A DNA stretch of 63,114 nt from an uncultured Bacilli bacterium (GTDB lineage Bacteria; Bacillota_I; Bacilli_A; RF39; UBA660). Numbering within the stretch: the stretch's first letter is position 1; each line of letters starts with the position of its first letter. Under the pieces are notes generated by a model. It was not told where the DNA came from. It ran no database searches and worked only from the letters and a program-made list of their open reading frames with translations. Location: the NCBI GenBank assembly GCA_947581835.1, contig CANPVV010000005.1:1-63114 (forward strand), given 5' to 3'. The position numbers were made by a program, and so were the translations under genes. Shown here one piece after another: positions 3,473-51,680 of this stretch.

Positions 3473-4132
3473 CTAATAATCTAAACTATTAACCCAAGCT
3501 TTTACTTCAGCCTCACTTATAGACAATCTTTTCCCATCTTGGAAATTAACATTTTTATAATGACTTTTAAAATAACTTACACTTGCAGATATTCCCGAAC
3601 TTCCTGACGTACAAAATGGAATAACTGTTTTCCCATCTAAATTATGACTATCTAAAAATGTCAAAATAATTCTTGGCGCATCTCCCCACCAAATTGGATA
3701 ACCTAAAAATATAACTTCATAATTATCAGTATTAATATTATTTTTTATTTCTGGTCTAGCACTAGCATCATTTTGTTCTTTTGTACTTCTACTATTACTA
3801 TTATTATAGTTTAAATCCTCTGAGGTATATTCATCTTTTGGTACAATTTCAATTAAATCTCCACCTACCCAATCTTTAATATACCCCGCAACTTTTTTAG
3901 TATTTCCTGTTGCCGAGAAATAAATAATAGCAACTTTTTTATCACTAGTCGTCTCATTATCATTATCATTTGTATTTTCTTCTTGTGTTTCATTACTATT
4001 TTGATTTTCATTTGTATTTGAATTATTATTATTGGATTCAAGTTTATTATTAGAACTTATAACCCAAAAACCAATTCCAGCTCCTACAATTACTACTATT
4101 GCAACAACTAAAACTATTATTTTTTTATTCAT
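3473..4132 (-). CDS. Membrane-anchored flavodoxin
   Basis: N-terminal TM, Asn/Glu-rich linker, YFSATGNT, GYPIWW, FCTSGSS. Confidence 0.88.
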   Translation of the reverse strand: MNKKIIVLVVAIVVIVGAGIGFWVISSNNKLESNNNNSNTNENQNSNETQEENTNDNDNETTSDKKVAIIYFSATGNTKKVAGYIKDWVGGDLIEIVPKDEYTSEDLNYNNSNSRSTKEQNDASARPEIKNNINTDNYEVIFLGYPIWWGDAPRIILTFLDSHNLDGKTVIPFCTSGSSGISASVSYFKSHYKNVNFQDGKRLSISEAEVKAWVNSLDY

Positions 4133-4222
4133 ATATTTTTTCCTTCTCTCTTTAAAACTACCTATTACCTCTCAATTATCTATAATCTTTTATATCCAAA
4201 CTTGCCAAAAATAAGACTATTT

Positions 4223-4840
4223 TCATTTCACACCTCCTAATATTTTTTCTAATCCCATTTTTATCATTTCTTTATCGCTATAAAACTTATATTTAAAATC
4301 TGCTTTATTTATCGCTTCTTTCATTTTATCAGTTATAGAGGTATAAGGATAAATTCCCACCAAAAAAGGTAATATAGTAAATGTAATTTCTTCTGCTTCC
4401 GCTTTTTTAATATTAAAAAATTTACATAAACATTGTTCTAATAAAGAAACAGTTTCTTTAAATACTAACTTAAAATGAGTAATGCTTTCAACTCTACTAT
4501 TTTCTTCCATCTGAAACATATTAATCGAAATAAGTTTAAGTAAAATTTTTCTTTTTATAAGAGAATCAGTAATTTTATTTATTAAATCTTCTTTTGCTAG
4601 TTTTTCATTTTGTAAAAGAATATTACCTAAATCTTCATTCCATTTTAAATATTCCCTTTCAAGAAGCGCCAAAAATATTTCTTCTTTTGTCTGAAAATAA
4701 TTATAAATAGAAGTTCTCCCAACACTTATAAGACTTGCAATAAGCTTAATATTTATATCTTTAAAATCAAACCTTTCATACAACTTTTCACAAGCACTTA
4801 CTATTTCTTCTTTTCTCTCATCAACCAGTCGTTTTTCCAT
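4223..4840 (-). CDS. TetR/AcrR family transcriptional regulator
   Basis: N-terminal HTH ...RTSIYNYFQTKEEIFL. Confidence 0.9.
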   Translation of the reverse strand: MEKRLVDERKEEIVSACEKLYERFDFKDINIKLIASLISVGRTSIYNYFQTKEEIFLALLEREYLKWNEDLGNILLQNEKLAKEDLINKITDSLIKRKILLKLISINMFQMEENSRVESITHFKLVFKETVSLLEQCLCKFFNIKKAEAEEITFTILPFLVGIYPYTSITDKMKEAINKADFKYKFYSDKEMIKMGLEKILGGVK

Positions 4841-4857
4841 TTTATTTTCCTTCTAAC

Positions 4858-4904
4858 TGACCCATTGTCAATATAATAATACACTCATAATGACACTCTG
4901 TCAA
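4858..4904 (-). promoter_or_regulatory. sigmaA promoter with two TGAC-N5-GTCA operator palindromes
   Basis: TTGACA (4904-4899)-17 bp-TATTAT (4881-4876). Palindromes at 4858-4870 and 4891-4903. Confidence 0.75.
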
Positions 4905-4961
4905 TATAAAATCAAACAAAAACAACTAAGATAATTTTATATCCTAGTTATTTTCTATACT

Positions 4962-7900
4962 TTACTCCATTTTCTTTTGTTTCACAATTATTTTATCCAA
5001 ACTTGCTAATACTGCAGGTAACAAAATTAATATTAACAAAACTGAACATAACGTTCCCTGTGAAATCGTTATACAAATCTTTGATGCTATCGCTGATGCA
5101 AAATAACCTACAATCAAAGTAACAATTATAAGGATTGATGCTGAAGTAATAATCGTATGAATTGACTCATTATAAGCCTCAATTACTGCATCTTTAACCT
5201 CCATAGTTCTTCTTAATTCTAAATAATAAGAAGTATACAATATCGCATAATCAATTGTAGCCCCCATTAATATACTTTGAACAATAAGGATTGCAATAAA
5301 GTAAACATTATCTCCCATAAGTGAAAGTATACCCATCGTTAAATAAACTGCACATTGAATAACCAAAACTAAAATAACTGGAATAATTAAAGATTTAAAT
5401 GTAAACGCTACAACCACAAATATTACAATCATTGTTATAATAGTTATATAAGTAAGTTCTTGATTAAATGTTTTACTCATATCATAAGCCATTGGTGAAT
5501 CTCCAATAACATAAAATTTATCCATTCCTTCACTTAACTTATCCCGCAAATTTTCTATAAATTTAAAAGTATTTTTTCCTTCTTTTTCATACTTTGTATT
5601 TAAAACTATTCGTGAATAATTCTTACCTCTAATTAAATTTTTTGCATCACTTATTTTAGTTTTTGCCTCTCTTATTTCTTCTCGCATCTCATCATCAATA
5701 AATTCATTAAATCTCTCATCATTAAGTATATCTTTATTTAAATACTGGACAAATTCTTCAATTGTTAAAACATAATTATAATCATACTTATACTGACTTC
5801 CATAATAAATATATAAAATATCTATTGTATTTTTATCAATATCTTCAGTAAGTTTCTCTACTAATTTATAAATTCCCTCATGAGTATATTTAGCTCCATT
5901 ATCTACCCCTTTTATAATCTCTCTTAAAGCCTGCAATTTACTTATTTTATCTTTACTAAACTCTTTACCATATTCTTTATCACTAACTACCTCATTTAAT
6001 AAATAATTAATAAACTCTTTCAAAGAAACTTTATAATTTTTATCTAAATATTTATAATCATACAATCCATACAACAATTTTAAATCATCTTCATTAACAC
6101 TTGATAATGTTGCCAAATCTTTACTACTATATTTAACCTCACCAATAACCCCTTCCATAACCTGTTTAACCAAATCTAAATCACTTAATGTTTCTTCGTC
6201 TAATTTTCCTTCTAAAACTTCATCATCTTTATGCTCTAAAATAAATGTAACAAAATTAATAGGACTTATAACCGTATCTCCTCTATTATCAATATATAAA
6301 GTATAAATATCTTTAACCATTTTTTCATCTATTCCCAAATATCTTCCAAGTTCATCATAACTAAACTTATCATTATCAAGAGTAGAATCCATTATATCTT
6401 TTAAAAATCCTAAATTACTCCATGTTGCTCCATCTATTTTATCTTTAATAAGCGAATTTTCTTTATTAGCAATAATAAGATTAACAAGTTCACTCAAGCT
6501 AGCTGTCCAATTATTTGTATTACCACCATAATAATTAATTAAAGCATACATATTACAAGCATCACTTTTACTAAGTCCTAAAGTTTCTGCCATTTGAGTA
6601 GCACTAAATTTAGGTGGGTTATCCGCTAGCCCAGAATCAATAGCTAATTGTAGTATTTTTAGTTTATTAATTGTTGCCTCATCTAATCCTCCACTTTCGG
6701 CAAAACTTAAAACAGTTTCAATAAAAGTTTTAGGACTAAATTTTACTCCATCTTTACCAGGTAAATCATAAACCATATCAACCAAACCAGGAGCAAGCTT
6801 ATCAAAAACACCTTTCAACTCATCTTTATTCATTTCTTTATTATCAATACCATCTTTATTTTCTACAAAAGGTTTTAACATTTCAAGTAAACTTATATCA
6901 CTTTCTTTAATATATTCATTTTCAACTAATTTTTCACTACCCAAAATAAATTCATCTAAACTAAATGTCGAACCATCATCTATATCTTTATACTTCAAAA
7001 GTAAAAGCTGTTTTATCATATCTTCTGGAACATTCAAATACCTAGAAAGTTCTAATGCTCCCATATCTTTAGTAATTGTTCCTCTATCACTAAAAGTTTT
7101 TAATAACTGAATACTATCCTTCATTTCTCTATCAAACATATCTTCATATTCTTCATTATTCATTACATTTTTTACTACAAAATTAGCAAACTGATTAATT
7201 GACAATTTTAAATCTATATCACTTAAACTAATATAATATTTATACAAATCTTTAACTGCCATCTCATCTATTGCAAATAAGCTAGCCATTTCTTTATAAT
7301 CCAGTTTTTTTATTATATCTTCTTTATTAATAAACTTTTTTAACTTATCTATTCTCTCCCTTTGTTCTTCATCAATTTTTTCGCCATACTTCTTACTAGT
7401 TAAAACATCTTTATCCATAAATTCCACAAAGTCATTTATGCTCAATTTAGCATTTTTATTTATTGCCAAATAATAAATCATTAAATCTTCAACATTACTT
7501 TTATCTATCTCTAAAATACTTGCTAAATCACTTATTGTTCTTTTCTTATTTACATTATTTTTAGTACTAAAATTCTTTAATCTTTCTATATTATTTTTCA
7601 TATCTTTATCAATTTTATCTTTTAAATCTTCATTATTATACGCTTTATCTTCAATAAAATTAATAAACTCACTTAAAGATATTTTAACATTAATATCTTT
7701 ATTATAATAATTATAATATAATATCTGCAATAAATAATCTGCTATATCCATATCCGAACCTAAATCTTTTACTTTATCCATTAATTTATCATAAGTTAAA
7801 TCTTCATCAATTGTATTTCCATAAGCTAGTACTTCATCAACCAATCTATCATCATCAATTTGGTCCAAATATTTTTTTATTATATCTTCATCTTTATTTT

Positions 7901-40365: not shown

Positions 40366-40614
40366 TTACTTATTAAATACAACTTTTAAATACTTAGTAA
40401 GTTAGCATCAATTTTAACTTCATTTAATATAGTTTTAAAATACTATTCATTTTTTTAAATCAATTTAAAACTAATCTCTTTATTTTAAAATCTGCCAAAA
40501 AAATTTTTGCGACACTTTCACGAGTATTCTTAAAAAAAGCTATCGTAAATACATATACTTTTGGATATAAAAAAACAAACCCTTTACTTATAAGGATCTG
40601 TTTAATATTCTAAA

Positions 40615-40690
40615 TGGCGCCCAATGTAGGACTCGAACCTACGACCTAACGGTTAACAGCCGTGCGCTCTACCGACTGAGCTAATTGGGC
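40615..40690 (-). tRNA. tRNA-Asn(GTT)
   Basis: GCCCAAT/ATTGGGC acceptor stem, CT-GTT-AA loop, GGTTCGAGTCC T-arm, encoded CCA, 76 nt. Confidence 0.97.
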
Positions 40691-40770
40691 ATTACTACTA
40701 AATTATAGTATTTATTATTTCTCTTGTCAATAATTTTATACATAATTTAGTAAAAACTTTTTAAAATTTA

Positions 40771-41133
40771 TTATCTTTCAGATGCAGCTGCTTCACATTC
40801 CTCACCAGGATGAGATATACAAGTTGCACAAATACCATATTCAGTTTTATATGGTTCCTCAGTAAATTCTGTAACCAAACTAAATACAGCCCCAACTATA
40901 ATAGGTACAAAGAAAATAACTATACCAGCGACTGCTCTCATCGCTAATGATTTAACAGACTTTTTAATTTCATCATCTTTACTAGCTACTACTGCTTTTC
41001 CTAAATCAATTACTCCAAAAAGGATAATTATAAGCGGAATAACTATTTTAAAAACAAATAATACCCAACCTATAATTTGCCATACTTCCCATAACTCAGA
41101 GCATATTGAAGGTACCATAATTAACATACACAT
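40771..41133 (-). CDS. TrbC/VirB2-like pilin-type membrane protein
   Basis: Two hydrophobic helices joined by a KAVVASKDDEIKK loop, Cys near both ends. Confidence 0.6.
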   Translation of the reverse strand: MCMLIMVPSICSELWEVWQIIGWVLFVFKIVIPLIIILFGVIDLGKAVVASKDDEIKKSVKSLAMRAVAGIVIFFVPIIVGAVFSLVTEFTEEPYKTEYGICATCISHPGEECEAAASER

Positions 41134-41159
41134 TTCCTCGCTTTCCTCTGTATATTTAT

Positions 41160-41188
41160 ATTTTAAACTATAACTCCTATATTGTCAA
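41160..41188 (-). promoter_or_regulatory. sigmaA promoter of the pilin-like gene
   Basis: TTGACA-17 bp-TAAAAT. Confidence 0.7.
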
Positions 41189-41223
41189 GTTTTTAATGTC
41201 AAATCATGTCTAATAAGAAAAAA

Positions 41224-41253
41224 AGTAATGATTACTAATTTATTATCATTACT
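41224..41253 (-). terminator. Terminator of the Tad operon
   Basis: AGTAATGAT-N12-ATCATTACT, T-run on the minus strand. Confidence 0.65.
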
Positions 41254-42042
41254 CTATACATTCATAAGCATTATAACCGCTAAAAGTAACAAAACCATAA
41301 CTCCTAAACCGGTTGAAATAAGCATACTTGTAGTTTTACCTTCCATCTTCTCCAAACGGTTTTTATACTTAGTCTCTCTCGCCTTTTGTTGTAAGTTAGA
41401 TATAGTCTTTGAAAAAGCTAATAATTGTTCTTGCTTTCTTTCCTGTCTACCTAAACTTAAACGATAAAGAAGACGCATCATACGCATTGAATCACGAACA
41501 GGATATTGTCTAGCAAATTCCATATAAGGTTCAATTGTATCATCACCAGCATTAATCTGATTTATCAACTGTTTTAAACCATCTTTAAATATTTCAGGAG
41601 CATCTTCCAAAGATTTACCAATTGCTACTGGAACCGTATAATGTTGAATCAAAATCTCTAATCCCTTTAAATAATAAGGAAGCATAGTATCAATATCATT
41701 TAAATGTTTTTTATAATATGACTTTAAATTCATATAATCTACTTTAAAATAAGCAAAACCAATAACTATACAAGCTACTGCATAAACATAAGACATATTT
41801 TTAAGCAATAAACAAAAAGCCAAACCCATAACAATTAAAGCGTTTTGAACTCTTTTATTAAACAAAATATCCGGATTTACTCTATCTCCATATTTTGCTT
41901 TAACATAAAAATCCCAATCACTTTCTTTCAATCTTCTTAAATACATTTCATTATCAGCAATTAACTTACTTATACTAATTTTACCTGTTTTAGTAAAAAT
42001 ATAAAATATAATAATTGCTACAAGAGCTATTTCTATCTGCAT
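41254..42042 (-). CDS. tadC: TadC-like platform membrane protein
   Basis: T2SSF-like topology, second platform gene after the ATPase. Confidence 0.65.
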   Translation of the reverse strand: MQIEIALVAIIIFYIFTKTGKISISKLIADNEMYLRRLKESDWDFYVKAKYGDRVNPDILFNKRVQNALIVMGLAFCLLLKNMSYVYAVACIVIGFAYFKVDYMNLKSYYKKHLNDIDTMLPYYLKGLEILIQHYTVPVAIGKSLEDAPEIFKDGLKQLINQINAGDDTIEPYMEFARQYPVRDSMRMMRLLYRLSLGRQERKQEQLLAFSKTISNLQQKARETKYKNRLEKMEGKTTSMLISTGLGVMVLLLLAVIMLMNV

Positions 42043-42938
42043 TATTCTACCCCCACATCATCATTGTAATATTTCTCACCCGTAAGTAAAAAATAACAAT
42101 TTACAATTATAATCGCATGAAGTATTAAATGCACATACCATAAATCTAAAAGTTCTAAATAACTATCTCTACCTAACAATAACTGCATTACTAAAACAAG
42201 TAAAAATAATACCAAAGCAAATGTTAAGAATTTAGTATGGAATTGTTTTCTATCCATTTGGTCACGATAAACACCTTCAACTAAAGCATCTATATCCATA
42301 CTCATATTTTCTAGTGCTTCTCCTGAATCTTTTGCACCCTCTTTAGTAATTTGTAAAAATAATTGATGCATATTCTTAACCATATAATAAGGATATTTTT
42401 GATTAAAATAAATTATAGACTCATCAATTGTTCCATTTTGATATGACATATCAATCATCATTTTAATATCACTCAAAACTGGATCCTCAACAATTCCTGA
42501 ATCTCTAACACCCTCCAGAGATTTAACAAAACTTTGAGTCGTATTAAATTCCATTATAACATTTGTTGTATATACTTGTATTTGCTCAAATATATATTCA
42601 CTATAAAGCCTTTTACTTCTTAAATAAGCTAAATAAGGAATAAAGGCAATTGCTATTCCACCATAAATTGCCACCATAATTATACTATAAAAATACAAAA
42701 AAGCAATTCCACCAGCTAACCCACCTAAAATAACAATTTGCATAATATAATCTTTAAGCGTATAATCTTGTTTTAACTCTTTCATTTTAGCACTCATCGC
42801 TTGGAAACTATATGGAGCATAACGACTATATACAGCCCCAATTTGCTTCTTTGCAAAATTATAAACCGAATCCGTACCATTACTCTGTCTATAAGCAAAT
42901 ATAAACAATGCTATCGCAATCCAAATTACAAGCTCCAT
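42042..42938 (-). CDS. tadB: TadB-like platform membrane protein
   Basis: TM pair, cytoplasmic helical domain, C-terminal TMs, follows the CpaF ATPase. Confidence 0.65.
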   Translation of the reverse strand: MELVIWIAIALFIFAYRQSNGTDSVYNFAKKQIGAVYSRYAPYSFQAMSAKMKELKQDYTLKDYIMQIVILGGLAGGIAFLYFYSIIMVAIYGGIAIAFIPYLAYLRSKRLYSEYIFEQIQVYTTNVIMEFNTTQSFVKSLEGVRDSGIVEDPVLSDIKMMIDMSYQNGTIDESIIYFNQKYPYYMVKNMHQLFLQITKEGAKDSGEALENMSMDIDALVEGVYRDQMDRKQFHTKFLTFALVLFLLVLVMQLLLGRDSYLELLDLWYVHLILHAIIIVNCYFLLTGEKYYNDDVGVE

Positions 42939-42950
42939 AAATACCTCCTA

Positions 42951-44051
42951 CTATAATGCTTCTACTACTTCATCTGTTTTTTTATCATTTAAATGAAATA
43001 AATCATCATCCAATATAACTCCCTGAATTGCTAAATAACTCTTTAGATACTTAGTTGGATTATTTAAAGTAAACTTCCCATCTAAAGTCTTTTGATATAT
43101 TGTATTAACTTGAGGTTTATTATCATCATCAACATAAAACTCACATATTTCCATAATCTCTCTTTGAAATCTTCCAAGCCTTTCACTCATATAACCTTTA
43201 ACATAAATTCCTATTTGCACATATCTGTGAATTGTTGTTACAAATTGTTCAACATCAATATTTGACTCAATCAAACTATACATACGCATTGGAATTAAAG
43301 CAGCTTTATCAGAGTGAATTGTTGAAATAATATGGTGTCCAGAAGAAATAGAGTTACGAACAGCCATAACGGCCTCAGCACTACGAACCTCGGAAAGCAA
43401 TATCCAAATAGGGTTCTGTCTCATACAAGTAACTAAAACATCTGAATAAGAAGCAATATTATTAGTTTTCATCGCTACTATATCTCGATATGGAAAAATA
43501 CGATCTAAGTGTAACTCCAAAGTATCCTCAATTGTAATAATTTTTTCATTTTCTTTTGTTGTACTAGCAAGATACTTAACAAGCTCAGTTTTACCTGAAC
43601 CAGTTTCACCACTAACAATTATATTGGCGTGTCCTTGAACACATTTAAGCAAAAAGTCTAATAAATCAGCACTAACATATTCTTCATTAAGTAATTTTTC
43701 TCTATTTAACCGAATCTTAGCCGGAGTTTTACGTATAACCAAAGCAATTCCATTCGTAGCAATTGAATCATGCACGAAATTAAGACGTAACTCTGTACTT
43801 TCAGCATCCAAAAAAGGATGTGCCATATTGAATGTTTTTCCCATAACGTTTGAACACTGAAAAGCAAGTTTTTCAATTAATGGATTATTGATATCTGGTC
43901 TATCTACTCTATAAACACCTTTAGATAAACTCTTTAACCAAATCTGTCCTCCATTAGTATAGGAAATATCGGTTATATCATCAATATCCAAAAACTCTTT
44001 TATTGGCCCAAAATCTATTTGAGAAAATATTGCATCATTCAAATATGTCAC
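42951..44051 (-). CDS. cpaF: CpaF/TadA (VirB11-family) ATPase (likely TTG start at 44042)
   Basis: GETGSGKT, TIEDTLEL, MRQNP...SEVRS, His-box SSGH...STIH. Confidence 0.88.
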   Translation of the reverse strand: MTYLNDAIFSQIDFGPIKEFLDIDDITDISYTNGGQIWLKSLSKGVYRVDRPDINNPLIEKLAFQCSNVMGKTFNMAHPFLDAESTELRLNFVHDSIATNGIALVIRKTPAKIRLNREKLLNEEYVSADLLDFLLKCVQGHANIIVSGETGSGKTELVKYLASTTKENEKIITIEDTLELHLDRIFPYRDIVAMKTNNIASYSDVLVTCMRQNPIWILLSEVRSAEAVMAVRNSISSGHHIISTIHSDKAALIPMRMYSLIESNIDVEQFVTTIHRYVQIGIYVKGYMSERLGRFQREIMEICEFYVDDDNKPQVNTIYQKTLDGKFTLNNPTKYLKSYLAIQGVILDDDLFHLNDKKTDEVVEAL

Positions 44052-44078
44052 CTCCTTTACTTATTCTTATTACTATTC

Positions 44079-44924
44079 TTATTGTTCTAAATTAGGATTT
44101 GTATATACTTCTTCATCAGGAATACTAGCAGTATAATCCATAATTTGATCTTTTATCCATTCACTATTAACTCGAGTTTCACCTTTTTCACTAGAATAAG
44201 CAGCATTCTTAGGAACCGGAATAATCTCAACTACTCTATTTCCTAATAAGATTGCTTTACTTAAAAGCAAATATAAATTTACTCCATCAACTTCATAGTT
44301 AGGAACCGCAAATGTTAACAATGAAGGAACTTTACTAGCCGTTGTATCATAAAATACACTTTTAGCACTTGAATCTCTTACATCCAAAATCGGCAATTTT
44401 GATATAAATAAACCATAAACAAGTTTTCCCGCACTATCTGTCATTTTAGCATATAAATCAATATAATCTCCAGGGAACATTGAATTACCATATGTCTTTA
44501 ATAAATCAACAGGTACAGAAACTGGTTGATAACCTTCAGGCATAGTTCTCAAAATATTATTTGTAACACTAGTACAAGGTTTAACTTGTTCTTGATAAAA
44601 GAAACCACCTTGCGGAATACTAGTCATTTCTGAAACACAAAAAGCTTGAGAAGTGCTTACAACACTATTTACATTGGAAATAATCGACTTATTACTAGTA
44701 ACCATCGATCTTAAAACTTCCATTGTACCAACTGCATCAGCCGTAATTGCCGTCGTAGAAGTAAGAGTTTTCTTCGCATAAGGAATAGACACCTTTTCTA
44801 CTGCGTGCTCAACTCTGTAATTATAACCTACAAACAACACTACTAATCCAAGTAATACACCCAAAATAGTTACAGTATTCTTATTTCCTAAAAATCTCTT
44901 AAATGTATTTACTATATTTCCCAT
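44079..44924 (-). CDS. cpaB: CpaB/RcpC-like SAF-domain pilus assembly protein
   Basis: N-terminal TM, IPYAKK SAF-like start, GNSMFPGDYIDLY. Confidence 0.7.
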   Translation of the reverse strand: MGNIVNTFKRFLGNKNTVTILGVLLGLVVLFVGYNYRVEHAVEKVSIPYAKKTLTSTTAITADAVGTMEVLRSMVTSNKSIISNVNSVVSTSQAFCVSEMTSIPQGGFFYQEQVKPCTSVTNNILRTMPEGYQPVSVPVDLLKTYGNSMFPGDYIDLYAKMTDSAGKLVYGLFISKLPILDVRDSSAKSVFYDTTASKVPSLLTFAVPNYEVDGVNLYLLLSKAILLGNRVVEIIPVPKNAAYSSEKGETRVNSEWIKDQIMDYTASIPDEEVYTNPNLEQ

Positions 44925-44940
44925 TTTATCCTACCTCTCT

Positions 44941-46284
44941 TTATTTAGCCCAAAAAGTTGCTCCTGTAGAAGAAACACCTGTTATTCGATGATGACAATC
45001 ATTATCTTGATAATGCCACCACTCTGATGACAAATCTTTTAATTCTGTACCATTCGTCATAATATTATGTAATTTTAAAACGTCAGAATTAGTAGATAAT
45101 TTGCTTTTATCAGGGCGTAAAGCCGCCCAAGGCCCCAATTCATGCATAGCAGATGGAGTACTAGCACCTTCAAAAACAATATCAACCGCACAAGCAGTAT
45201 TATGAGCTGAAGTTCCTAATGCAACGAAATCTCCAGTTGCAAAAGTATCATCATTTACATAAGCATTTACTACCGGATCAGACTCAACTAAATTTTCAAA
45301 AGCACTTTTTAACTTAAGAGTAACACTATGTGGCCTATAAGCGTCATTAATAATCAACTTAACCCCTGCCGCATCAGCATTCTGCTTAGCCGTTAGTAAT
45401 TTTTTAGCAAAAGAATACACTGCAATAGGTTTATAACTACTATTATATAACTGTCCTAAATTCAAAGGCTTATTATGTGATTGATACTTACTAGTAGAAG
45501 CATTAAATATAGAAGTAGTAATTCCTGTAAAGGCAGTTATATCAACTGCTACATAATTACTATCAATCCAACCACAATCATAATTATCGGATTTAACAGC
45601 CCACCATCTGGAATCAGAATCACTCATACCTAAAATTTCAAACTCTTCAGTATCAGTATTATTCGTTTTAGTAGTACCAATCTGATTATTATGCTCTTTG
45701 GAATCATAAACTGCAATAGCAGACATAGGATAAGCCTTTAGCCCTTTAGCATCTAAACTTGTATCAATACCATCTTTACAAGCAGAAGTAACCTCCGGCT
45801 CAGGTTCATCTGGTTCATCACTAGGTTCATCTGGAGTAGGCTCTGGTTCAGCTTCGCCGCTACCACTAGAACCAACTTCAGCCGCATGTACAAGTATTAT
45901 AGCATCATATCTAGTAACTGTATCATATTCATCTCTACCAGGAATATAATTAGCACCACTATTACTTAATACTTCAACACTAACCTTTGGAGGAGCCTCA
46001 TATATACCATAAAAATTAACTTTATAAGTACCATTAGCATTTTGATTATTCATTGAAAAAGCTTCAAGGAAAATCTCCATAAATTTTTCTTTATTCATCT
46101 TAATTTCGTTATAATCACGATAATAAGCATAATCAACTGCTAAAAGCATAGCTTGCTCCGCAGTTTCTTTTATATTTAAATAATCTTGGGTAGAGGTAGT
46201 TGTTAATCCGTTAACAGCCATCATTAAACCAACGATTGAAACACCCATAACAATTAACCAATATCCCCAATAACTATGTGACAT
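44941..46284 (-). CDS. Pilin-like (DUF5411-like) N-domain + Pro/Glu linker + SH3-like + M15 (VanX-type) peptidase
   Basis: N-terminal TM, EPEPTPDEP linker, WWAVK...GWIDSNYV, DAYRP, SAHNTACAVD, EWWHY. Confidence 0.78.
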   Translation of the reverse strand: MSHSYWGYWLIVMGVSIVGLMMAVNGLTTTSTQDYLNIKETAEQAMLLAVDYAYYRDYNEIKMNKEKFMEIFLEAFSMNNQNANGTYKVNFYGIYEAPPKVSVEVLSNSGANYIPGRDEYDTVTRYDAIILVHAAEVGSSGSGEAEPEPTPDEPSDEPDEPEPEVTSACKDGIDTSLDAKGLKAYPMSAIAVYDSKEHNNQIGTTKTNNTDTEEFEILGMSDSDSRWWAVKSDNYDCGWIDSNYVAVDITAFTGITTSIFNASTSKYQSHNKPLNLGQLYNSSYKPIAVYSFAKKLLTAKQNADAAGVKLIINDAYRPHSVTLKLKSAFENLVESDPVVNAYVNDDTFATGDFVALGTSAHNTACAVDIVFEGASTPSAMHELGPWAALRPDKSKLSTNSDVLKLHNIMTNGTELKDLSSEWWHYQDNDCHHRITGVSSTGATFWAK

Positions 46285-46300
46285 TTTCTACCTCTCCTTT

Positions 46301-49300
46301 CTACTTCCAAGCTGGTCCTAACATTTCAAGATCATTTATTGTACCAGACCATAAAGTAAAGTATTCATTAACATTTGGTCTATCAAAATTTCTACCTCTA
46401 TCTCTTACAGCAGGTCCACTAGCACTACTAGATGCTTCAATATATTTGTCCAAGTAATCACTATAGCAAACGGCCTTTTCATAAGTATTACCACTAGCAT
46501 CACTAATATCTACACAACGCATAGTCTTCGAATTAGCATATCCACTATCATCTAAATCTTTCTCAACATTTTCTTTCATTTTTCTAGTTAAAGCTGGATC
46601 AACAGTAATACTTAAAATTGGATCAGATTCATAAATACCATTACCAATTTCCTCAATTTCTTCTCTAGTAGCAGAACCTTTTTCATTGCTCCAGTTATAT
46701 GAAGCAGGTTCTTCCGAATCATCTAAACTTGGGAACATATTATTTAACGAAATAGGCTTCTCATAATAAGTATCTCCATCATCATATATACATCCTATAG
46801 AAATACATTCTGAAATACAATCATCGCCTTCACAAGGAGGACCACATGGTGGAATACAACCACTTGGACAATCAGGACAACTAGGATCTTCCTCATCTTC
46901 ACAAGTAAATGTTTTACCATCAATTACAATATTAACTAAATACTTACAATTATAAGCCAATTTACCAGCCATATCATCAGTAGCAAAATAATCTACATAT
47001 CTACCATAGGTACCAACACGGCCTGCTTCATAATATTCTCCAATACCTTCAAGATTTATATAATAATTAAATACACCTTTTCTATCAGAAGTTCCATCAG
47101 AAGTAAAATGATCACGTGCTACTGGCAATGCTCCGTTACCGTCTTTATCATCTACTTTTGTAAAGCTTACTTCACTTGGATCTGGCTCATCAACAACTAC
47201 AGAACCATCTGGGTGAATTTGATAGAATAATATTTTTGGTACATACTTAGCTGTAATTTTAGTTTCTATCTTTTTATATCTAGCATCTGATACTTCTTGA
47301 GTTCCTTCATTTAATCCTGCCTCACACTTGCTTTCATCGCATGATACAAATTTAATAGGAGTTTTCCGTTCAGCAGAACCAGGATCTTTAGTACACTCAG
47401 TATAACCATCGTCACCTTTATCACTTATTTCAGCTGTAGACTCATTACCAGTACCAGGAGTAACAATAGAATTACAATACCACTCTTCTGGTGAACCCTT
47501 AGTTACAGTTGCTTCCATATTTTCAGTATTGCCTCTAATTAAATCCATATATTCTTCATCATATTCATAAGATACAGTACCATTATAATTATATTCATAA
47601 GTCCATTCAGAACATAAATTAAACTCTTTTGTAATTGTATTTAAACGTTCCTTAGCTGTATTAAGATGAGCCAATAAAGAACTTAACTTATTCTTTAAAT
47701 CATCTTGCATTTTAGTAGGATTACCATCATCAGCAGCATCATCTACACCACAACCATCATCAGAATAATCAGTATCAGTATGATAATCATCACCCTTTAT
47801 ATGTTCATCATCTTCACCGACTGTTAATGAACCATATTCAGTTTCGTGTGACTCAGCAGCAATTTCAACTACACCAGTATCTTCATGTTTTGCAGTAATC
47901 CTATAATAAGTATAAGTAGCCTTAGCATAATATTCATTCCAGTCATCAGTTGCAGGCATTCCTTCACAACCTTCTGTTCCATCACCATCAGCATCTGCTA
48001 AGCAACAACCAGAAGAACTAGATTGAGGATTAGCTGTATAACTAGCAGGATCTACCTTAGATAAAGCCAAATATTTAGCATATTCATTATAAGCATCAAT
48101 TATAGCTTCTTGAGCTTCTATCATATCTTTATTATAAATTTCTCTTTGAATAGTATTAGTATAACATGTTTGTGTACCCTCTACTTTTGCTCTAAATGAG
48201 AAATATCTTCCGGCATTTACTAACTTAGCTGTAGGCATCTTCATTAAATAATCTTCCTTACAAGATACAGTACAGTATTTATTACCGCCACCGCTACTAC
48301 CATTATTAGCCATTACCTGTGTAATATAAGTATTATCTTTACTATCAGCACTAATTTCTGGATGAGTTTCAACCTCAGAACATCCATTATCGCCTTGACA
48401 GTTTTTATCAATTATATCAACAAAACAAGCATAATTCGAATGAGGCCCATATATATAAGCATCTTGATAATCTTTAACTTGATTACCACCACCAGCACCG
48501 CCTCCGACAGTACCAGTAACTTCACTTTCGGCATCTAAAGCATCTGGATCTCCAGCATTAACAGTTGAAGAGAAAATTACATTATTATTTTCATCGCAAC
48601 AAGCAAACTGACTCATTTCTGGATCACAAGTAATTGTTAAAGGTTCACCATCACACTCATCTTTATAATCTTGACAATATTCACTACTTGGATCACCACT
48701 TGCATTACATAAAGCCTGTAAAGAATCACATCTATCACAAGTTCCATCTTCAGCATAATCATCAAGTGTCTGACACATTGGATCACTTAAATCTCCAGCT
48801 GCAGTACACTCATCAATTAATTCTTCACAAGTAACACATTTTTTCGCTGGATCCTTAAATTTTTGACAATTTTCATCAGTATCTGGATCATCAGCATTCT
48901 CACAAAGGGCTTCCCACGTAGTACAACTCTCTGGACAATCATTATCTGGATCCTTTAATTCATCACATGCATCGGTATCGCCATCTTTACAATCTTTCTC
49001 CCATGTTTTACAACTAGGACAATCATTATCATCAAACTTTTTGCAATTTTCATCGTTATCTGGATCATCAGCTTTTTCACAAAGTACTTCCCATGTAGTA
49101 CAATCATCAGGACATAATTCTTCTAAATCATCGCACGCATCACTTTCAGGATCTTCATCACATTCATTTACTAAATCAGTACAACAACCGTTATCTTCAT
49201 CTTTAAAGTTTTTACAATTTTCGTCATTCTCTGGATCATCTGAAATCTTACATAAAGCTTCCCACACGATACAATCAGGACACTCTCCGTCTTTTTGTGC

Positions 49301-50887
49301 ATCCTTTAAGTCATCACATGCTTCAGTATCGCCACCAACACAATCTTCAGCTAATTCTTCACATTCAGCACAATCTCCAGTTAAATTAATTTCACCAGTA
49401 AGTGAACCAGTGTAATCCTCGCCATCCTTATCACTATCTTCGTCGGTCTTAGCATCAGGAGTATATGTCAAAAATCTTTGACGACTATTTTTAGCAGAGT
49501 CATAATCACCAGCGCCACCAACAGTATCATCAGTGCTACGCCATACTACACCAACATCATCAGAAAATTCATTTGTAGAATTAGAATCATCTCCAGCACT
49601 ATAAACATAATTCAAAGTATATTTCATTGGTTGTTTATCACATAATAACTTATCAAGAGTTACACCATCATTCAAAGATTTATAACCTTTAAATTCAATA
49701 GTTATTGTAATAGTCATTTCTTCAGTAATAGTAACTCCATCAGCTTTTAACAAATTTTTATCTTCGCCGAGCCATTCACTATTACAACTTCCACTTGAAG
49801 GCTCACTTTCACTACCTCCAACCTCATCACAAACAACTTTACCACCAACATCAATTTTTACTATTGCTGGTTCTTCTGAGGCACCATACTCTTTAGCACC
49901 TCCATCATAAGTTAAATCCTTAAGAGCAAATTTAAGTTTATCATTATCTGGGTCCAAACCTTTTAAAGTTAATTTATGTTCAACTCTTTGAAAAAGCATT
50001 GTACCATTTGAATCTTCAAATGGAGTGGCTTTAGTTCCAGTAGAAGTTGCAGTTTCAGCTTTAACTTCCATTTTTCCACCATTTTTAGCTTTTTTAGCAT
50101 ACTCTAAAGCAGCTGTTAAAGCAGAAGCATAATAACTCTTAGCTCCTGATACAGTCTGATCAGTATTAGAAGCTTCAACCCATACATAATCATTCCAACA
50201 ATAATCATTTTCAGATTTACATGTTTTATATTGATCACCATAAGCATTAGTTTTTAAACCACCAACTAAACCATTTAACTCTTCATATGTTGAACGTAAA
50301 CTTGCATCATAATGTAACCAATTATTTACGTTATTATAACAAGCACGAAGTAGCTCTTTAGCCAAATCGCCAGATTTACGTTTACTTTGTAAAGATTGTG
50401 GAGTATCCAACATACCAAATGTCGCAGCAATGCCTCTAATTGCTAAACTACGATTTACATAATCAGAACTACTTGTAGTAGCATCTTTTAAAAGATACAT
50501 TAAAGCGTAATCAGCAACATCCCACTTACTGCCTGGAGTAGTTGGCCCCAAAGTTGTAACATCTGTAAATAAAAATCTTTCAGCATACATACTTGATTTT
50601 GAAGTTAACGGAGCATCCAAACAAAAAGCAGGCTTACCATCTATTGTATGTATATAATATAATGGTTTCTGATAACCCATATCACTTATATAAAGCACAA
50701 CGCCAAATTTATCAGAAGTATCTTTATTTACGACAGTCTTACTCTTTTGAGTCGGGCCTTCGCTCATACTCGTTGCAGCAGTATAAGGCCCCCATGTCTT
50801 CTTAGCAGCCCATACATTTTTTTGCCAACCAAAACTTATTGTAAGTAAAATAAGTATCAAGCTTAATAATCTTAAACTTTTTTTCAT
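46301..50887 (-). CDS. Giant secreted Cys/Asp-rich protein
   Basis: Signal peptide, 1528 aa, central Cys repeats, no C-terminal anchor. Confidence 0.85.
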   Translation of the reverse strand: MKKSLRLLSLILILLTISFGWQKNVWAAKKTWGPYTAATSMSEGPTQKSKTVVNKDTSDKFGVVLYISDMGYQKPLYYIHTIDGKPAFCLDAPLTSKSSMYAERFLFTDVTTLGPTTPGSKWDVADYALMYLLKDATTSSSDYVNRSLAIRGIAATFGMLDTPQSLQSKRKSGDLAKELLRACYNNVNNWLHYDASLRSTYEELNGLVGGLKTNAYGDQYKTCKSENDYCWNDYVWVEASNTDQTVSGAKSYYASALTAALEYAKKAKNGGKMEVKAETATSTGTKATPFEDSNGTMLFQRVEHKLTLKGLDPDNDKLKFALKDLTYDGGAKEYGASEEPAIVKIDVGGKVVCDEVGGSESEPSSGSCNSEWLGEDKNLLKADGVTITEEMTITITIEFKGYKSLNDGVTLDKLLCDKQPMKYTLNYVYSAGDDSNSTNEFSDDVGVVWRSTDDTVGGAGDYDSAKNSRQRFLTYTPDAKTDEDSDKDGEDYTGSLTGEINLTGDCAECEELAEDCVGGDTEACDDLKDAQKDGECPDCIVWEALCKISDDPENDENCKNFKDEDNGCCTDLVNECDEDPESDACDDLEELCPDDCTTWEVLCEKADDPDNDENCKKFDDNDCPSCKTWEKDCKDGDTDACDELKDPDNDCPESCTTWEALCENADDPDTDENCQKFKDPAKKCVTCEELIDECTAAGDLSDPMCQTLDDYAEDGTCDRCDSLQALCNASGDPSSEYCQDYKDECDGEPLTITCDPEMSQFACCDENNNVIFSSTVNAGDPDALDAESEVTGTVGGGAGGGNQVKDYQDAYIYGPHSNYACFVDIIDKNCQGDNGCSEVETHPEISADSKDNTYITQVMANNGSSGGGNKYCTVSCKEDYLMKMPTAKLVNAGRYFSFRAKVEGTQTCYTNTIQREIYNKDMIEAQEAIIDAYNEYAKYLALSKVDPASYTANPQSSSSGCCLADADGDGTEGCEGMPATDDWNEYYAKATYTYYRITAKHEDTGVVEIAAESHETEYGSLTVGEDDEHIKGDDYHTDTDYSDDGCGVDDAADDGNPTKMQDDLKNKLSSLLAHLNTAKERLNTITKEFNLCSEWTYEYNYNGTVSYEYDEEYMDLIRGNTENMEATVTKGSPEEWYCNSIVTPGTGNESTAEISDKGDDGYTECTKDPGSAERKTPIKFVSCDESKCEAGLNEGTQEVSDARYKKIETKITAKYVPKILFYQIHPDGSVVVDEPDPSEVSFTKVDDKDGNGALPVARDHFTSDGTSDRKGVFNYYINLEGIGEYYEAGRVGTYGRYVDYFATDDMAGKLAYNCKYLVNIVIDGKTFTCEDEEDPSCPDCPSGCIPPCGPPCEGDDCISECISIGCIYDDGDTYYEKPISLNNMFPSLDDSEEPASYNWSNEKGSATREEIEEIGNGIYESDPILSITVDPALTRKMKENVEKDLDDSGYANSKTMRCVDISDASGNTYEKAVCYSDYLDKYIEASSSASGPAVRDRGRNFDRPNVNEYFTLWSGTINDLEMLGPAWK
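48650..49375 (-). repeat. About eight tandem Cys-rich acidic repeats
   Basis: CxxWExLC...DDPxxDENCxxFxD alternating with CxxLxxxC...xxACDxL. Confidence 0.85.
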
Positions 50888-50888
50888 A

Positions 50889-51680
50889 TTATACTACTCT
50901 CCTTTTTCTTACTATTATCACTACTGCTGTAGCCACCCCTGCAACAATAATTACAACACTTGTCGCAATTATTGTGTTTTTATTCTTTTCAAAAAATCCC
51001 TTTTCTTTCTCTTTTTCTTCCTCTTTTTCTTGATTTTCTTTATTAGCTCTATAAGCATCCATTCGATTAATCATTTCCTCAGCTGAAAGAGTTTGTTCAT
51101 ATTCTACATACTCATGACACAAATAATACTCAGAAATGCCTTCACATACTCCATAAGTACTAAACTCATTACGCCTAGGAAGAGTTTTTTTAATCGTCCT
51201 TATATTATTTCTAATGCAATCACTATCAACTGCTTTTACATCAATAGTAAATGTATTTATACGAGACAAATCATAATCTTTTACAATAACAGTACCATTT
51301 TCACTATCCTCGTAAGTATATTTCTTAGTTTTCCCACTAAAAGAATCCTTAACTTCTACATAAATATTTTCCGTTAAATTAGTTATATAAATCTTAAAAA
51401 AAGTTACATAAGAAACATAATTTTTTTCGCCTTCCTCAGTAAGACCATCTGGTGGAGTATAAGAATCCTTAGGCTCCTCTTCTTGTGTCACTTCATAACT
51501 CACTTGTACTTTATAGGCTTCATTTCTAATTTGATTAGACACTGATGCCTCACACGCTGCTGATACTTTTGTTACTGACATCATGAATACCATCATGAAA
51601 ACCACTAACATTCTAATTTTTTTCATAGTATACACCAACCTCATAACTAAGATTATAGCACGTTGTAAACATTTTTTCAA
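50889..51680 (-). CDS. Exported protein with C-terminal TM anchor, first gene of the Tad operon (likely start 51626)
   Basis: Signal peptide ...VSA, C-terminal TM + RKRR, 1-bp gap to the next gene. Confidence 0.8.
   Translation of the reverse strand: MKKCLQRAIILVMRLVYTMKKIRMLVVFMMVFMMSVTKVSAACEASVSNQIRNEAYKVQVSYEVTQEEEPKDSYTPPDGLTEEGEKNYVSYVTFFKIYITNLTENIYVEVKDSFSGKTKKYTYEDSENGTVIVKDYDLSRINTFTIDVKAVDSDCIRNNIRTIKKTLPRRNEFSTYGVCEGISEYYLCHEYVEYEQTLSAEEMINRMDAYRANKENQEKEEEKEKEKGFFEKNKNTIIATSVVIIVAGVATAVVIIVRKRRVV
51652..51680 (-). promoter_or_regulatory. sigmaA promoter of the Tad operon
   Basis: TTGAAA-17 bp-TATAAT with extended TG. Confidence 0.75.

Follow-up and report, generated by a model that had tools for sequence, protein, structure and literature searches.

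The stretch analysed here (the window) is the entire 63-kb contig CANPVV010000005.1 (63,114 nucleotides; contig 5 of assembly GCA_947581835.1) of an uncultured Bacilli bacterium (RF39; UBA660), whose genome comprises 1.29 Mb, has 27-30% G+C and is 99% complete. Our subject is a group of eight minus-strand genes which, according to open reading frame (ORF) calls, spans positions 51680-40771 (Table 1). The first seven (51626-41254), all co-directional and with intergenic gaps of -1 to 27 bases, code for an anchored exported protein, a giant Cys-rich protein, a protein in which the domain DUF5411 is fused to a peptidase, a CpaB-like protein, a secretion ATPase, and two polytopic membrane proteins named here platform proteins 1 (TadB-like) and 2 (TadC-like). 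The eighth encodes a small VirB2-like membrane protein. An earlier interpretation, made from the sequence alone, had described one promoter driving seven tightly packed genes, followed by a two-helix TrbC/VirB2-like gene with its own promoter, and the ORF calls, gaps and promoter positions agree with it on both points. It had also noted that Flp pilin, prepilin peptidase, VirB4, coupling protein and relaxase genes are all missing from the window. Family searches throughout the genome confirm this and place them on other contigs: Flp on contig 16, the A24 peptidase on contig 3, VirD4 on contigs 28 and 32, VirB4 on contigs 23 and 28, and the relaxase on contig 28.

The true start of the first gene is the ATG at 51626, located after a ribosome-binding site, while the listed TTG at 51680 is part of the promoter. 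This promoter is near-consensus with an extended -10 element, and follows closely on the terminator-like hairpin of the preceding gene. The hairpin at the operon end has too few G-C pairs and is absent from the terminator scan output. The promoter scan as a whole was not enriched with regard to shuffled sequences (87 found, 84 expected), and promoters were assigned by position, not by statistics.

Table 1. Genes and regulatory features of the studied locus (aa, amino acids; TM, transmembrane)
Feature	Position	Strand	Characteristics
Terminator-like hairpin of the preceding DcuC-type transporter gene	51719-51704	-	
Promoter-like site of the operon	51652..51680	-	TTGAAA, 17 nt, TATAAT, TG extension
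Exported, C-terminally membrane-anchored protein	50889..51626	-	245 aa; signal peptide, charged EK-rich stretch, TM helix, RKRRVV tail
Giant secreted acidic Cys-rich protein	46301..50887	-	1528 aa, 70 Cys
DUF5411 + Peptidase_M15 fusion	44941..46284	-	DUF5411 1-131, acidic Pro-rich linker, M15 ~266-429
CpaB/RcpC-like protein	44079..44924	-	N-terminal TM helix, SAF-like and RcpC-like domains
CpaF/VirB11/FlaI-clade secretion ATPase	42951..44051	-	366 aa, Walker A GETGSGKT
Platform protein 1 (TadB-like)	42042..42938	-	298 aa, polytopic; predicted GspF/PilC-fold cytoplasmic domain ~115-225
Platform protein 2 (TadC-like)	41254..42042	-	262 aa, polytopic; paralogue of platform protein 1
AT-rich hairpin and T-run (terminator-like), end of the seven-gene operon	41217..41253 (about)	-	by eye
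Promoter-like site of the VirB2-like gene	41160..41188	-	TTGACA, 17 nt, TAAAAT
VirB2-like / T4SS_pilin-like membrane protein	40771..41133	-	120 aa, two hydrophobic helices, basic loop between, IDLGKAV loop motif

The locus is widely conserved among relatives. The gene for platform protein 1 was found in 23 of the 24 other genomes of the genus, duplicated in one of them, and beyond the family in two others of the class. The four relatives from the genus with enough sequence have the eight genes in collinear order. Identity within the genus is ~90% for the ATPase and ~80% for the platform pair, decreasing to 46-61% for the CpaB-like and 52-71% for the two-helix protein; in other genera of the family the ATPase and platform proteins retain 54-77%. 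Of 49 other genomes of the family, 42 encode DUF5411; they belong to many genera and measure 0.7-1.6 Mb. DUF5411 is also encoded by 2/3 and 4/38 genomes of two further families (two of the latter four reach the cut-off). Related records originate from animal and human gut metagenomes and are named "uncultured Bacilli/Tenericutes bacterium", "Mycoplasma sp. CAG:776", "Candidatus Coprovivens" and similar.

Gene maps were constructed for 20 loci from other genera, eight of which were extended downstream. The order DUF5411, CpaB, ATPase, TadB and TadC forms an invariable core, seen in each of the 17 family loci with an ATPase gene (20 such loci if those of the two further families are added). In most genera, platform protein 2 is followed by one or two genes of a short protein of 47-93 aa (c7), one or two of a ~150-aa protein (c3), a gene for a 330-aa protein (c8), and then by one to several copies of the VirB2-like gene. 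Seven of the eight extended loci continue with a polytopic VirB6-like protein of 630-850 aa, a VirB3-sized protein of ~105 aa (k12), a protein of ~185 aa (k13), a VirB4-like protein of 595 aa, a wall hydrolase (M23, or CHAP with lysozyme), and VirD4. The extended loci end in housekeeping genes (RmuC, RNase R, rhodanese), and no relaxase or integrase was seen in any of the eight.

NCBIfam models specify the kind of type IV secretion system (T4SS) that follows the core. The VirB4-like protein is of the Mbov_0397 type, known from a mycoplasma integrative and conjugative element (ICE; NF045975, 358.8 bits, below the equivalog cut-off of 590), and it also matches CD1110 with 173.5 bits. The VirB6-like protein weakly matches MMCAP2_0566 / pLS20_p028, and VirD4 of a relative belongs to the CD1115 family (293 bits, cut-off 250). 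VirB4 is split in every relative examined, so that the gene of 185-197 aa corresponds to positions 92-276 and the gene of 594 aa to positions 295-891 of the mycoplasma-ICE VirB4 model.

To count arrangements downstream of platform protein 2, the best 80 loci from species-representative genomes were used. The VirB2-like gene is directly adjacent, as in the window, in 16 loci, and comes after c7-c3-c8 in 34. In eight loci c7-c3-c8 is followed by something else, in eight the contig stops right after c8, in eight nothing was recognised, and six are too short. The module is thus linked to a VirB2-like gene in 50 of the 66 loci with enough downstream sequence. This bears on a statement of the sequence-only reading, according to which canonical flp/tadV genes elsewhere and a VirB2-like gene unlinked in relatives would speak against it. 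A canonical flp does exist on contig 16, but the VirB2-like gene is linked in the majority of relatives.

Two further variants of the locus were noticed. One genome of the genus contains, besides the split system described below, a second and unsplit copy (DUF5411 through c8, with the VirB2-like gene) which is 30-68% identical to the first. In another genome, a distant variant comprises the CpaB-like gene, both platform genes and c8, with no ATPase gene between CpaB and platform 1.

Among the core proteins, the ATPase is the most readily assigned. It matches PF00437 (T2SSE) with 94.2 bits (cut-off 24.9), and its best solved relatives are CpaF (63.8 bits, residues 5-260), VirB11 (56.5) and FlaI (56.3). 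Still higher scores were obtained with ATPases annotated as "CpaF/VirB11 family" on the plasmids pZB18 (159 bits) and pDSYZ (149 bits), compared with 84 bits (26% identity) for TadA of the same genome and 45 bits for its PilB-like ATPase. By sequence, we assign the window ATPase to the CpaF/VirB11 clade. The CpaB-like protein of the window scores 23.8 bits with PF16976, under the cut-off of 28.8, and 26.9 bits with TIGR03177; its orthologues match PF16976 at E<=0.01 in 23 of 24 cases (best 5e-9) and SAF in 5 of 24. A profile search of the PDB with this family gave no match. The family matches identify the gene as a CpaB/RcpC homologue.

The two platform proteins cluster by BLASTP, and alignment of their families by hhalign (67% probability, E 5e-5) identifies them as paralogues. 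A profile search among 1.84 billion representatives recovered 517 relatives of the platform protein, and a search of the PDB with the family profile retrieved nothing relevant. Some of the relatives, 480-570 aa long, match the profile twice and are fused two-domain forms as in PilC/GspF. Platform protein 1, the only one modelled, gave an AlphaFold2 (AF2) model with a mean predicted local distance difference test (pLDDT) value of 82. Compared by VIA-align with 48,161 chains, the model is closest to PilC (2whn; Z 9.7, root-mean-square deviation (rmsd) 2.7 over 101 aligned residues; 3jc8, Z 9.4), followed by EpsF (2vma, 9.2), SpoIIIAB (8.1) and TcpE (7.1), all five being of GspF/PilC type, while the sixth match drops to 5.7. 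The top matches have an rmsd of 2.7-3.5 Å over nearly whole crystal domains, except for the 3jc8 PilC chain with 8.2 Å over 168 residues. In a Foldseek search the model aligned with EpsF at a probability of 0.84 and a target TM-score of 0.67 (E 2.6), and no match was obtained at E<=0.001. We consider that the modelled fold gives good, although short of conclusive, support for platform protein 1 as a GspF/PilC-fold platform.

The DUF5411 part of the fusion protein (residues 1-131) matches PF17424 with 145.6 bits (cut-off 30). It begins with M.(E/S)S(F/Y)WG, MKESFWG at the alignment start, and a hydrophobic helix follows. In its AF2 model (pLDDT 77), an N-terminal helix of 44 residues (5-48) rests on a three-stranded sheet. 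The predicted build is that of a pilin "lollipop", in which a short leader precedes an extended hydrophobic helix at the N-terminus and a small sheet, while Foldseek and VIA-align searches with the model gave no decisive match.

Similar features characterize c7 and c3, both of which start with a six-residue leader M[KR]E..G continued by ~20 hydrophobic residues. Residues M1, A4, E7 and T11 do not vary in c7, and G6 occurs in >=90% of its sequences, as it does in >=90% of those of c3. The leaders look like class III (prepilin) signal peptides and may be cleaved as such. The predicted mature end of c7 has Glu at position +1, unlike Flp; a G/xxxxEY motif is absent, and none of c7, c3 and DUF5411 matches the Flp, TadE or Class_IIIsignal models. 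For c8, no match was found in Pfam, in NCBIfam or among PDB sequences. It aligns weakly with TadZ of this genome (hhalign 21%, E 1e-3), and by eye it lacks the Walker A lysine motif.

The VirB2-like protein of the window scores 19.1 bits with PF18895, under the cut-off of 26.6. Matches at E<=0.01 were obtained for 13 of 24 members of its family (best 1.8e-5), and a precomputed PF18895 match is given for 5 of the 120 close homologues listed. The PDB profile search with this family gave no match, and its alignment shows no class III leader. Two cysteines, Cys11 and Cys102 in window numbering, are invariant in all 24 members and closely flank the helix pair; a disulfide staple between them may tie the ends of the hairpin. 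Some VirB2/TrbC pilins have their ends tied together by cyclisation. The arrays of VirB2-like genes lead into a VirB6-like gene in 17 of the 27 arrays with enough sequence, with VirB4 and VirD4 following. In some species, up to six VirB2-like genes stand in a row before the VirB6-like gene, recalling the variable pilin arrays of Patescibacteria.

Parts of the block missing from the window were located by tblastn of relatives' proteins against this genome. Two c7, two c3 and one c8 gene stand in a row in the middle of contig 18 (19812-22410), between unrelated genes. A second VirB2-like gene, with a signal peptide, adjoins a VirB6-like gene for 847 aa at the end of contig 23 (19622-16580). Elsewhere on contig 23 (6476-3846), k12 (104 aa), k13 (196 aa) and the VirB4-like gene (594 aa) form a trio, in which the VirB4-like gene (3846-5630) matches PF19044 with 47.6 bits (cut-off 25.8) and its separate N-terminal part is k13 (5630-6220). 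VirD4 (PF02534, 188.5 bits) is on contig 32, where, as in relatives, the rhodanese gene comes next. Of 30 other genomes of the genus, 27 contain c8 (~80% identity), and in all those for which the contig numbers of c8 and of the ATPase locus were compared, the two are on different contigs. This separation indicates that an ancestral block was split in the genus and its pieces were retained.

The same genome also encodes other machines of these kinds. A canonical Tad locus occupies contig 16 (20526-25384), with Flp, TadE, a TadG-like protein, a TadZ-type ParA, TadA (471 aa), TadB and TadC. Its Flp, of 76 aa, is the only one found genome-wide (PF04964, 27.9 bits, and Class_IIIsignal). This locus is situated at a contig end, and a TadV gene could therefore lie beyond it. 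A PilC/GspF platform gene (265 bits to GspF) is located on contig 3 (43714-45924), next to the sole A24 peptidase of the genome; the PilB/GspE-like ATPase is on a separate contig (contig 23, 7562-8779). No A24 peptidase was found in the related superclusters examined. Contig 28 is ICE- or plasmid-like and carries a second, separate T4SS with a relaxase, a 604-aa VirD4 and a 772-aa VirB4. Of the two relaxase families searched for in the genome, PF03432 occurs only there, beside this other VirD4/VirB4 pair, and PF02486 was not found.

The closest known relative of the locus was revealed by tblastn of the ATPase against 72,556 plasmids, in which the best matches are the "CpaF/VirB11 family" genes of Gram-positive conjugative plasmids (31-33% identity). 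The operons of pZB18 (E. faecium, pMG1-like) and pDSYZ (B. velezensis, pLS20-family) are collinear with that of the window. They begin with a large adhesin, a ~125-aa protein with an N-terminal helix, the ATPase, two polytopic proteins of ~240-280 aa, and a 120-aa protein with an N-terminal helix. These are followed by very small proteins with one helix each, a protein of 76-92 aa with two helices (annotated as TrbC/VirB2 in pZB18), VirD4, and pLS20_p028 (VirB6). In a table covering pLS20 genes 34-54 in PMC8557374, gene 37 is listed as a putative VirB11, and genes 36 and 38-41 as "unknown".

Profiles of our family alignments were searched against the 496 stop-to-stop frames of the two plasmid loci. 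The DUF5411 profile hits the ORF of gene 36 best (E 5.8e-5 in pDSYZ, 7.8e-4 in pZB18), the TadB-like profile that of gene 38 (2e-8 in pDSYZ, none in pZB18), the TadC-like profile that of gene 39 (2.3e-6 and 0.023, respectively), and the c3 profile that of gene 40 (0.068 and 8.8e-4). Comparison of single plasmid proteins with the family alignments by hhalign was weak. From collinearity and from homology detectable at the profile level, we consider the conjugation operon of pLS20-family plasmids (genes 34-41 and 45-54) and the equivalent block of pMG1-like plasmids, with genes 36-40, to be the closest known relative. The shared scheme comprises the adhesin, DUF5411 (gene 36), the ATPase (37), the TadB- and TadC-like proteins (38 and 39), c3 (40), and then a two-helix protein, VirD4, VirB6 and VirB4. 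Plasmid operons are mobile and have a relaxase, whereas the window-type system is chromosomal with none attached. In the latter, c8 (330 aa) and a homologue of CpaB/RcpC are present in addition, the VirB2-like genes form arrays, and in this genus the parts are distributed among several loci. The leader of the small pilins also differs, being MKEAxGE here and MLDQNTDR on plasmids.

The anchored protein shows no match above cut-off in Pfam or NCBIfam; its homologues occupy the same position in the genus (31-42% identity) and in other genera (a cluster of 19). In some genera a 520-aa polytopic protein, an Ig-like surface protein and a sortase stand upstream in its place. The giant protein contains four C..C..WE.LC...DDP.NDENC repeats in residues 536-760, and is only 22-32% identical within the genus, compared with ~90% for the ATPase. 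It does not match any Pfam family, and neither did any of the 20 big proteins at the equivalent position in relatives (E<=0.001), nor a 694-aa protein of contig 18 and the 847-aa VirB6-like protein (22 of 22 blank overall). Its C-terminus reads ...GPAWK, and the ending GP[SA][WF][KR] is common to the genus and the nearest genera. More distant giant proteins finish in a short Cys-bounded loop, and the C-terminal motif may be a recognition or sorting signal. Identity of the giant protein as a thioester adhesin was considered and not adopted, since the Atlas score of 0.76 is below reliability and the match to the SpaA-like adhesin of pZB18 (E 0.07) is non-significant.

In the fusion protein, the second domain matches PF01427 with 32.3 bits (cut-off 27). 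M15 zinc and catalytic motifs are defined as S-x-H-x-x-x-x-x-x-D plus E-x-x-H, and were recognised by eye as SAHNTACAVD and EWWH. An SH3b-like stretch was noted by eye only, with no Pfam SH3 match at E<=0.1. The fusion was present in two of the five genus copies compared (the window and one of four relatives), and it resembles what is termed a "modular pilin". The M15 domain would be a wall peptidase (VanX/VanY-type zinc D-Ala-D-Ala / cell-wall peptidase) grafted as a module on the DUF5411 pilin in this species.

Based on these results, we propose, with a probability of roughly 0.55, that the window holds the assembly core of a divergent type-IV-filament (Tad-like) module, and that this module and a Gram-positive T4SS of the pLS20/mycoplasma-ICE type are the two halves of a composite machine. 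We regard the system as a chromosomal form of a plasmid-type machine that is known but poorly understood, and in which the type-IV-filament component had not been recognised before. In the proposed mechanism, the ATPase and the platform pair would assemble c7 as the major and c3 and DUF5411 as minor pilins into a short wall-crossing pilus or pseudopilus, after removal of their leaders by the single A24 peptidase of the genome. The CpaB-like protein would form an envelope-spanning collar, and c3 and DUF5411 could be placed at the tip or the base of the filament. The giant fast-evolving Cys-rich protein and its anchored partner would be displayed by the filament or delivered through it as an element of contact or adhesion, and the M15 module may cut peptidoglycan, either that of the cell itself for passage or that of a partner. 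VirB2-like proteins would polymerise into a tube on the VirB6-like protein and not on the Tad-like platform, with the split VirB4 as energy source and VirD4 feeding the channel. Acting together, the two halves could establish cell-to-cell contact and transfer DNA or protein. The role is probably a host function and not self-transfer of a mobile element, since no relaxase is attached and inheritance is vertical in tiny genomes.

Several observations weigh against this proposal. Regarding the filament assignment, Pfam T2SSF (PF00482) was matched by none of 24 platform orthologues at E<=0.1, and by one of 41 distant platform relatives, with 20.4 bits, below the cut-off of 25.2. Alignment of the platform family by hhalign with TadB and TadC of the same genome was weak or null (21% and 0.3%, respectively), and Z values of 7-10 for helical domains or bundles can arise by chance, according to the tool's own warning. 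In the VIA-align search with the DUF5411 model, pilins reached Z 5.0-5.4, below unrelated alpha/beta folds at 6.6. Some c7 and c3 leaders, including two from this genome, have S or N in place of G. With respect to the plasmid relationship, c7, c8 and VirB2-like profiles found nothing in the two plasmid loci, and the hhalign comparison of the VirB2-like family with the annotated TrbC/VirB2 of pZB18 was null. As to coupling of the halves, the VirB2-like gene is missing after the module in 16 of the 66 informative loci, and the genus separated the two halves without losing them, which fits coupling and independence alike. Finally, in a third family the Tad-like core is accompanied by a c3-like gene and one for a big secreted protein, with no VirB2-like or T4SS gene nearby. 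The filament module can accordingly stand alone, and coupling of the two halves is deduced from linkage only.

The last points belong to the main rival explanation, an independent adhesion pilus, to which we assign a minor though real chance. It holds that two independent machines are neighbours by descent, the Tad-like one being a self-contained pilus that shows the giant protein to mucus, host cells or bacteria, and the VirB2-like gene belonging to a separate T4SS. Besides the third family and the retention of all pieces on different contigs in the genus, this explanation has on its side that the VirB2-like gene stands behind a terminator-like hairpin with a promoter of its own. Furthermore, a passage of a 2022 gene-context study names operons with CpaF, PilC/GspF and DUF5411 in Clostridia as a predicted pilus/secretion system, with no T4SS genes included there (PMC9523054). 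It is opposed by the order of filament module, VirB2-like gene and T4SS, which many genera and also a second family have preserved. On plasmids, genes 36-40 are part of the conjugation operon itself, with the adhesin gene on one side and VirD4/VirB6/VirB4 on the other, as tabulated in PMC8557374, and the window ATPase is nearer to the plasmid ATPases than to the canonical TadA of its own genome.

An improbable alternative is that the two-helix VirB2-like protein is the subunit which the Tad-like motor and platform assemble instead of Flp, in line with the idea of the sequence-only reading that a VirB2-like protein replaces the Flp pilin. The direct succession of platform protein 2 and the VirB2-like gene (16 of 80 loci) and the lack of any Flp-type gene in the window agree with such a substitution. 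But the module has pilin-like genes of its own, c7 and c3 with the M[KR]E..G leader, placed between the platform and VirB2-like genes in 34 of 80 loci and on contig 18 in this genome, and the VirB2-like protein lacks a class III leader. In addition, 17 of the 27 arrays with enough sequence directly adjoin a VirB6-like gene, as reported for VirB2-like proteins of Gram-positive plasmids in a preprint (10.64898/2025.12.18.695078). The former suggestion of a hybrid filament/secretion machine is therefore retained as far as linkage (50/66 loci) and continuation into VirB6, VirB4 and VirD4 are concerned, but not in the form of a Tad system with a swapped pilin. Least probable of all is that an integrated conjugative element is decaying here and no longer functions. 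This would be in accord with the fragmented block in the genus, the lack of a relaxase nearby and VirB4 split in two genes, but all frames are intact, the ATPase (~90%), the platforms (~80% in the genus; 54-77% across the family) and the separated c8 (27 of 30 genus genomes, ~80%) are conserved, VirB4 is split in the same way in every relative examined, and the module is kept in 42 of 49 family genomes of just 0.7-1.6 Mb.

The composite machine that we propose can be compared with other known systems. It shares with the Tad (Flp) system, a type IVc filament, a CpaF-clade ATPase, two paralogous single-domain platforms of GspF fold, as far as predicted, CpaB/RcpC, and small proteins with a Gly-ending leader and a hydrophobic helix. 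It differs in having no match to Flp, TadE or T2SSF models, another leader and mature N-terminus, and no dedicated peptidase. Patescibacteria, as described in a 2025 study (PMC12102498), have chromosomal T4SSs with no relaxase and with arrays of PF18895 pilins. Common features are reduced genomes, VirB4/VirB6/VirB3 of MPF-FATA type (MPF, mating-pair formation), tandem variable PF18895-type pilins, and the presence of type IV pili too. Unlike them, the bacterium studied here is from another phylum (Bacillota, Bacilli), and its filament module is of a kind physically joined to a T4SS block with plasmid relatives.

The preprint cited above (10.64898/2025.12.18.695078, December 2025) states that VirB2-like proteins stand next to VirB6 in most Gram-positive conjugative plasmids and predicts a pilus on VirB6. 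PrgF of pCF10 and its counterparts can be likened by description to the VirB2-like protein, as a small two-helix membrane protein beside a VirB6-like gene. In contrast to PrgF, the window copy is away from the VirB6-like gene, although the contig 23 copy keeps this position, and the window family has an invariant Cys pair outside the helices. A type-IV-filament machine and a T4SS encoded together are also found, by description, in IncI plasmid R64, in which a type IV pilus beside a Dot/Icm-like conjugation system serves mating-pair formation, according to PMC12857230 and PMC12102498. R64 differs in its diderm host and in a type IVb pilus with PilV adhesins, and any homology would be expected at the superfamily level at most. 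In the literature searched, we found no paper in which a module of TadB/TadC-like or pilin type is reported for Gram-positive conjugation, or this chromosomal system for the RF39 clade.

Downstream of the VirB2-like gene, a tRNA-Asn (GTT) gene follows directly (40573-40730), with a perfect TTGACA-17-TATAAT promoter and a terminator of its own. In at least five genomes of the genus the contig stops ~1.4 kb past the first platform gene, and a repeat may be present there, near the tRNA-Asn region.

To our knowledge, the textbook view of Gram-positive conjugation includes neither VirB11 nor pili, and pili were denied until recently. If the proposed composite machine is real, pLS20 genes 36-41, listed as "unknown" with the exception of gene 37, would gain a testable identity as motor, platform and pilins of a type IV filament. 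This would concern a field in which, in a 2025 review (PMC12857230), Gram-positive T4SSs are said to lack VirB11 homologues. A wider picture, which we offer tentatively and regard as unlikely in its entirety, is that the machine, vertically inherited and with no relaxase, serves these reduced-genome gut Bacilli as an organ of interaction between cells. A filament tipped by the hypervariable giant Cys-rich protein, and in this species bearing the M15 wall peptidase on a modular pilin, would seize and breach another bacterium, and a VirB2/VirB6/VirB4/VirD4 channel would then move DNA, nucleotides or proteins. Such bacteria would live dependently or as epibionts, in parallel to Patescibacteria; as a corollary, a conjugative type IV filament would have gone unrecognised in the "VirB11" region of pLS20-type plasmids.

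For the organisms themselves, the proposal would mean that a large uncultured gut clade with genomes of ~1 Mb keeps a composite machine on the chromosome, with no relaxase. This would point to a host function, for instance contact, uptake or delivery, and would offer a handle on the lifestyle of these bacteria. The giant proteins and VirB2-like arrays evolve very fast, as expected of surface molecules under diversifying pressure, and could mark strain-level interactions in the gut.

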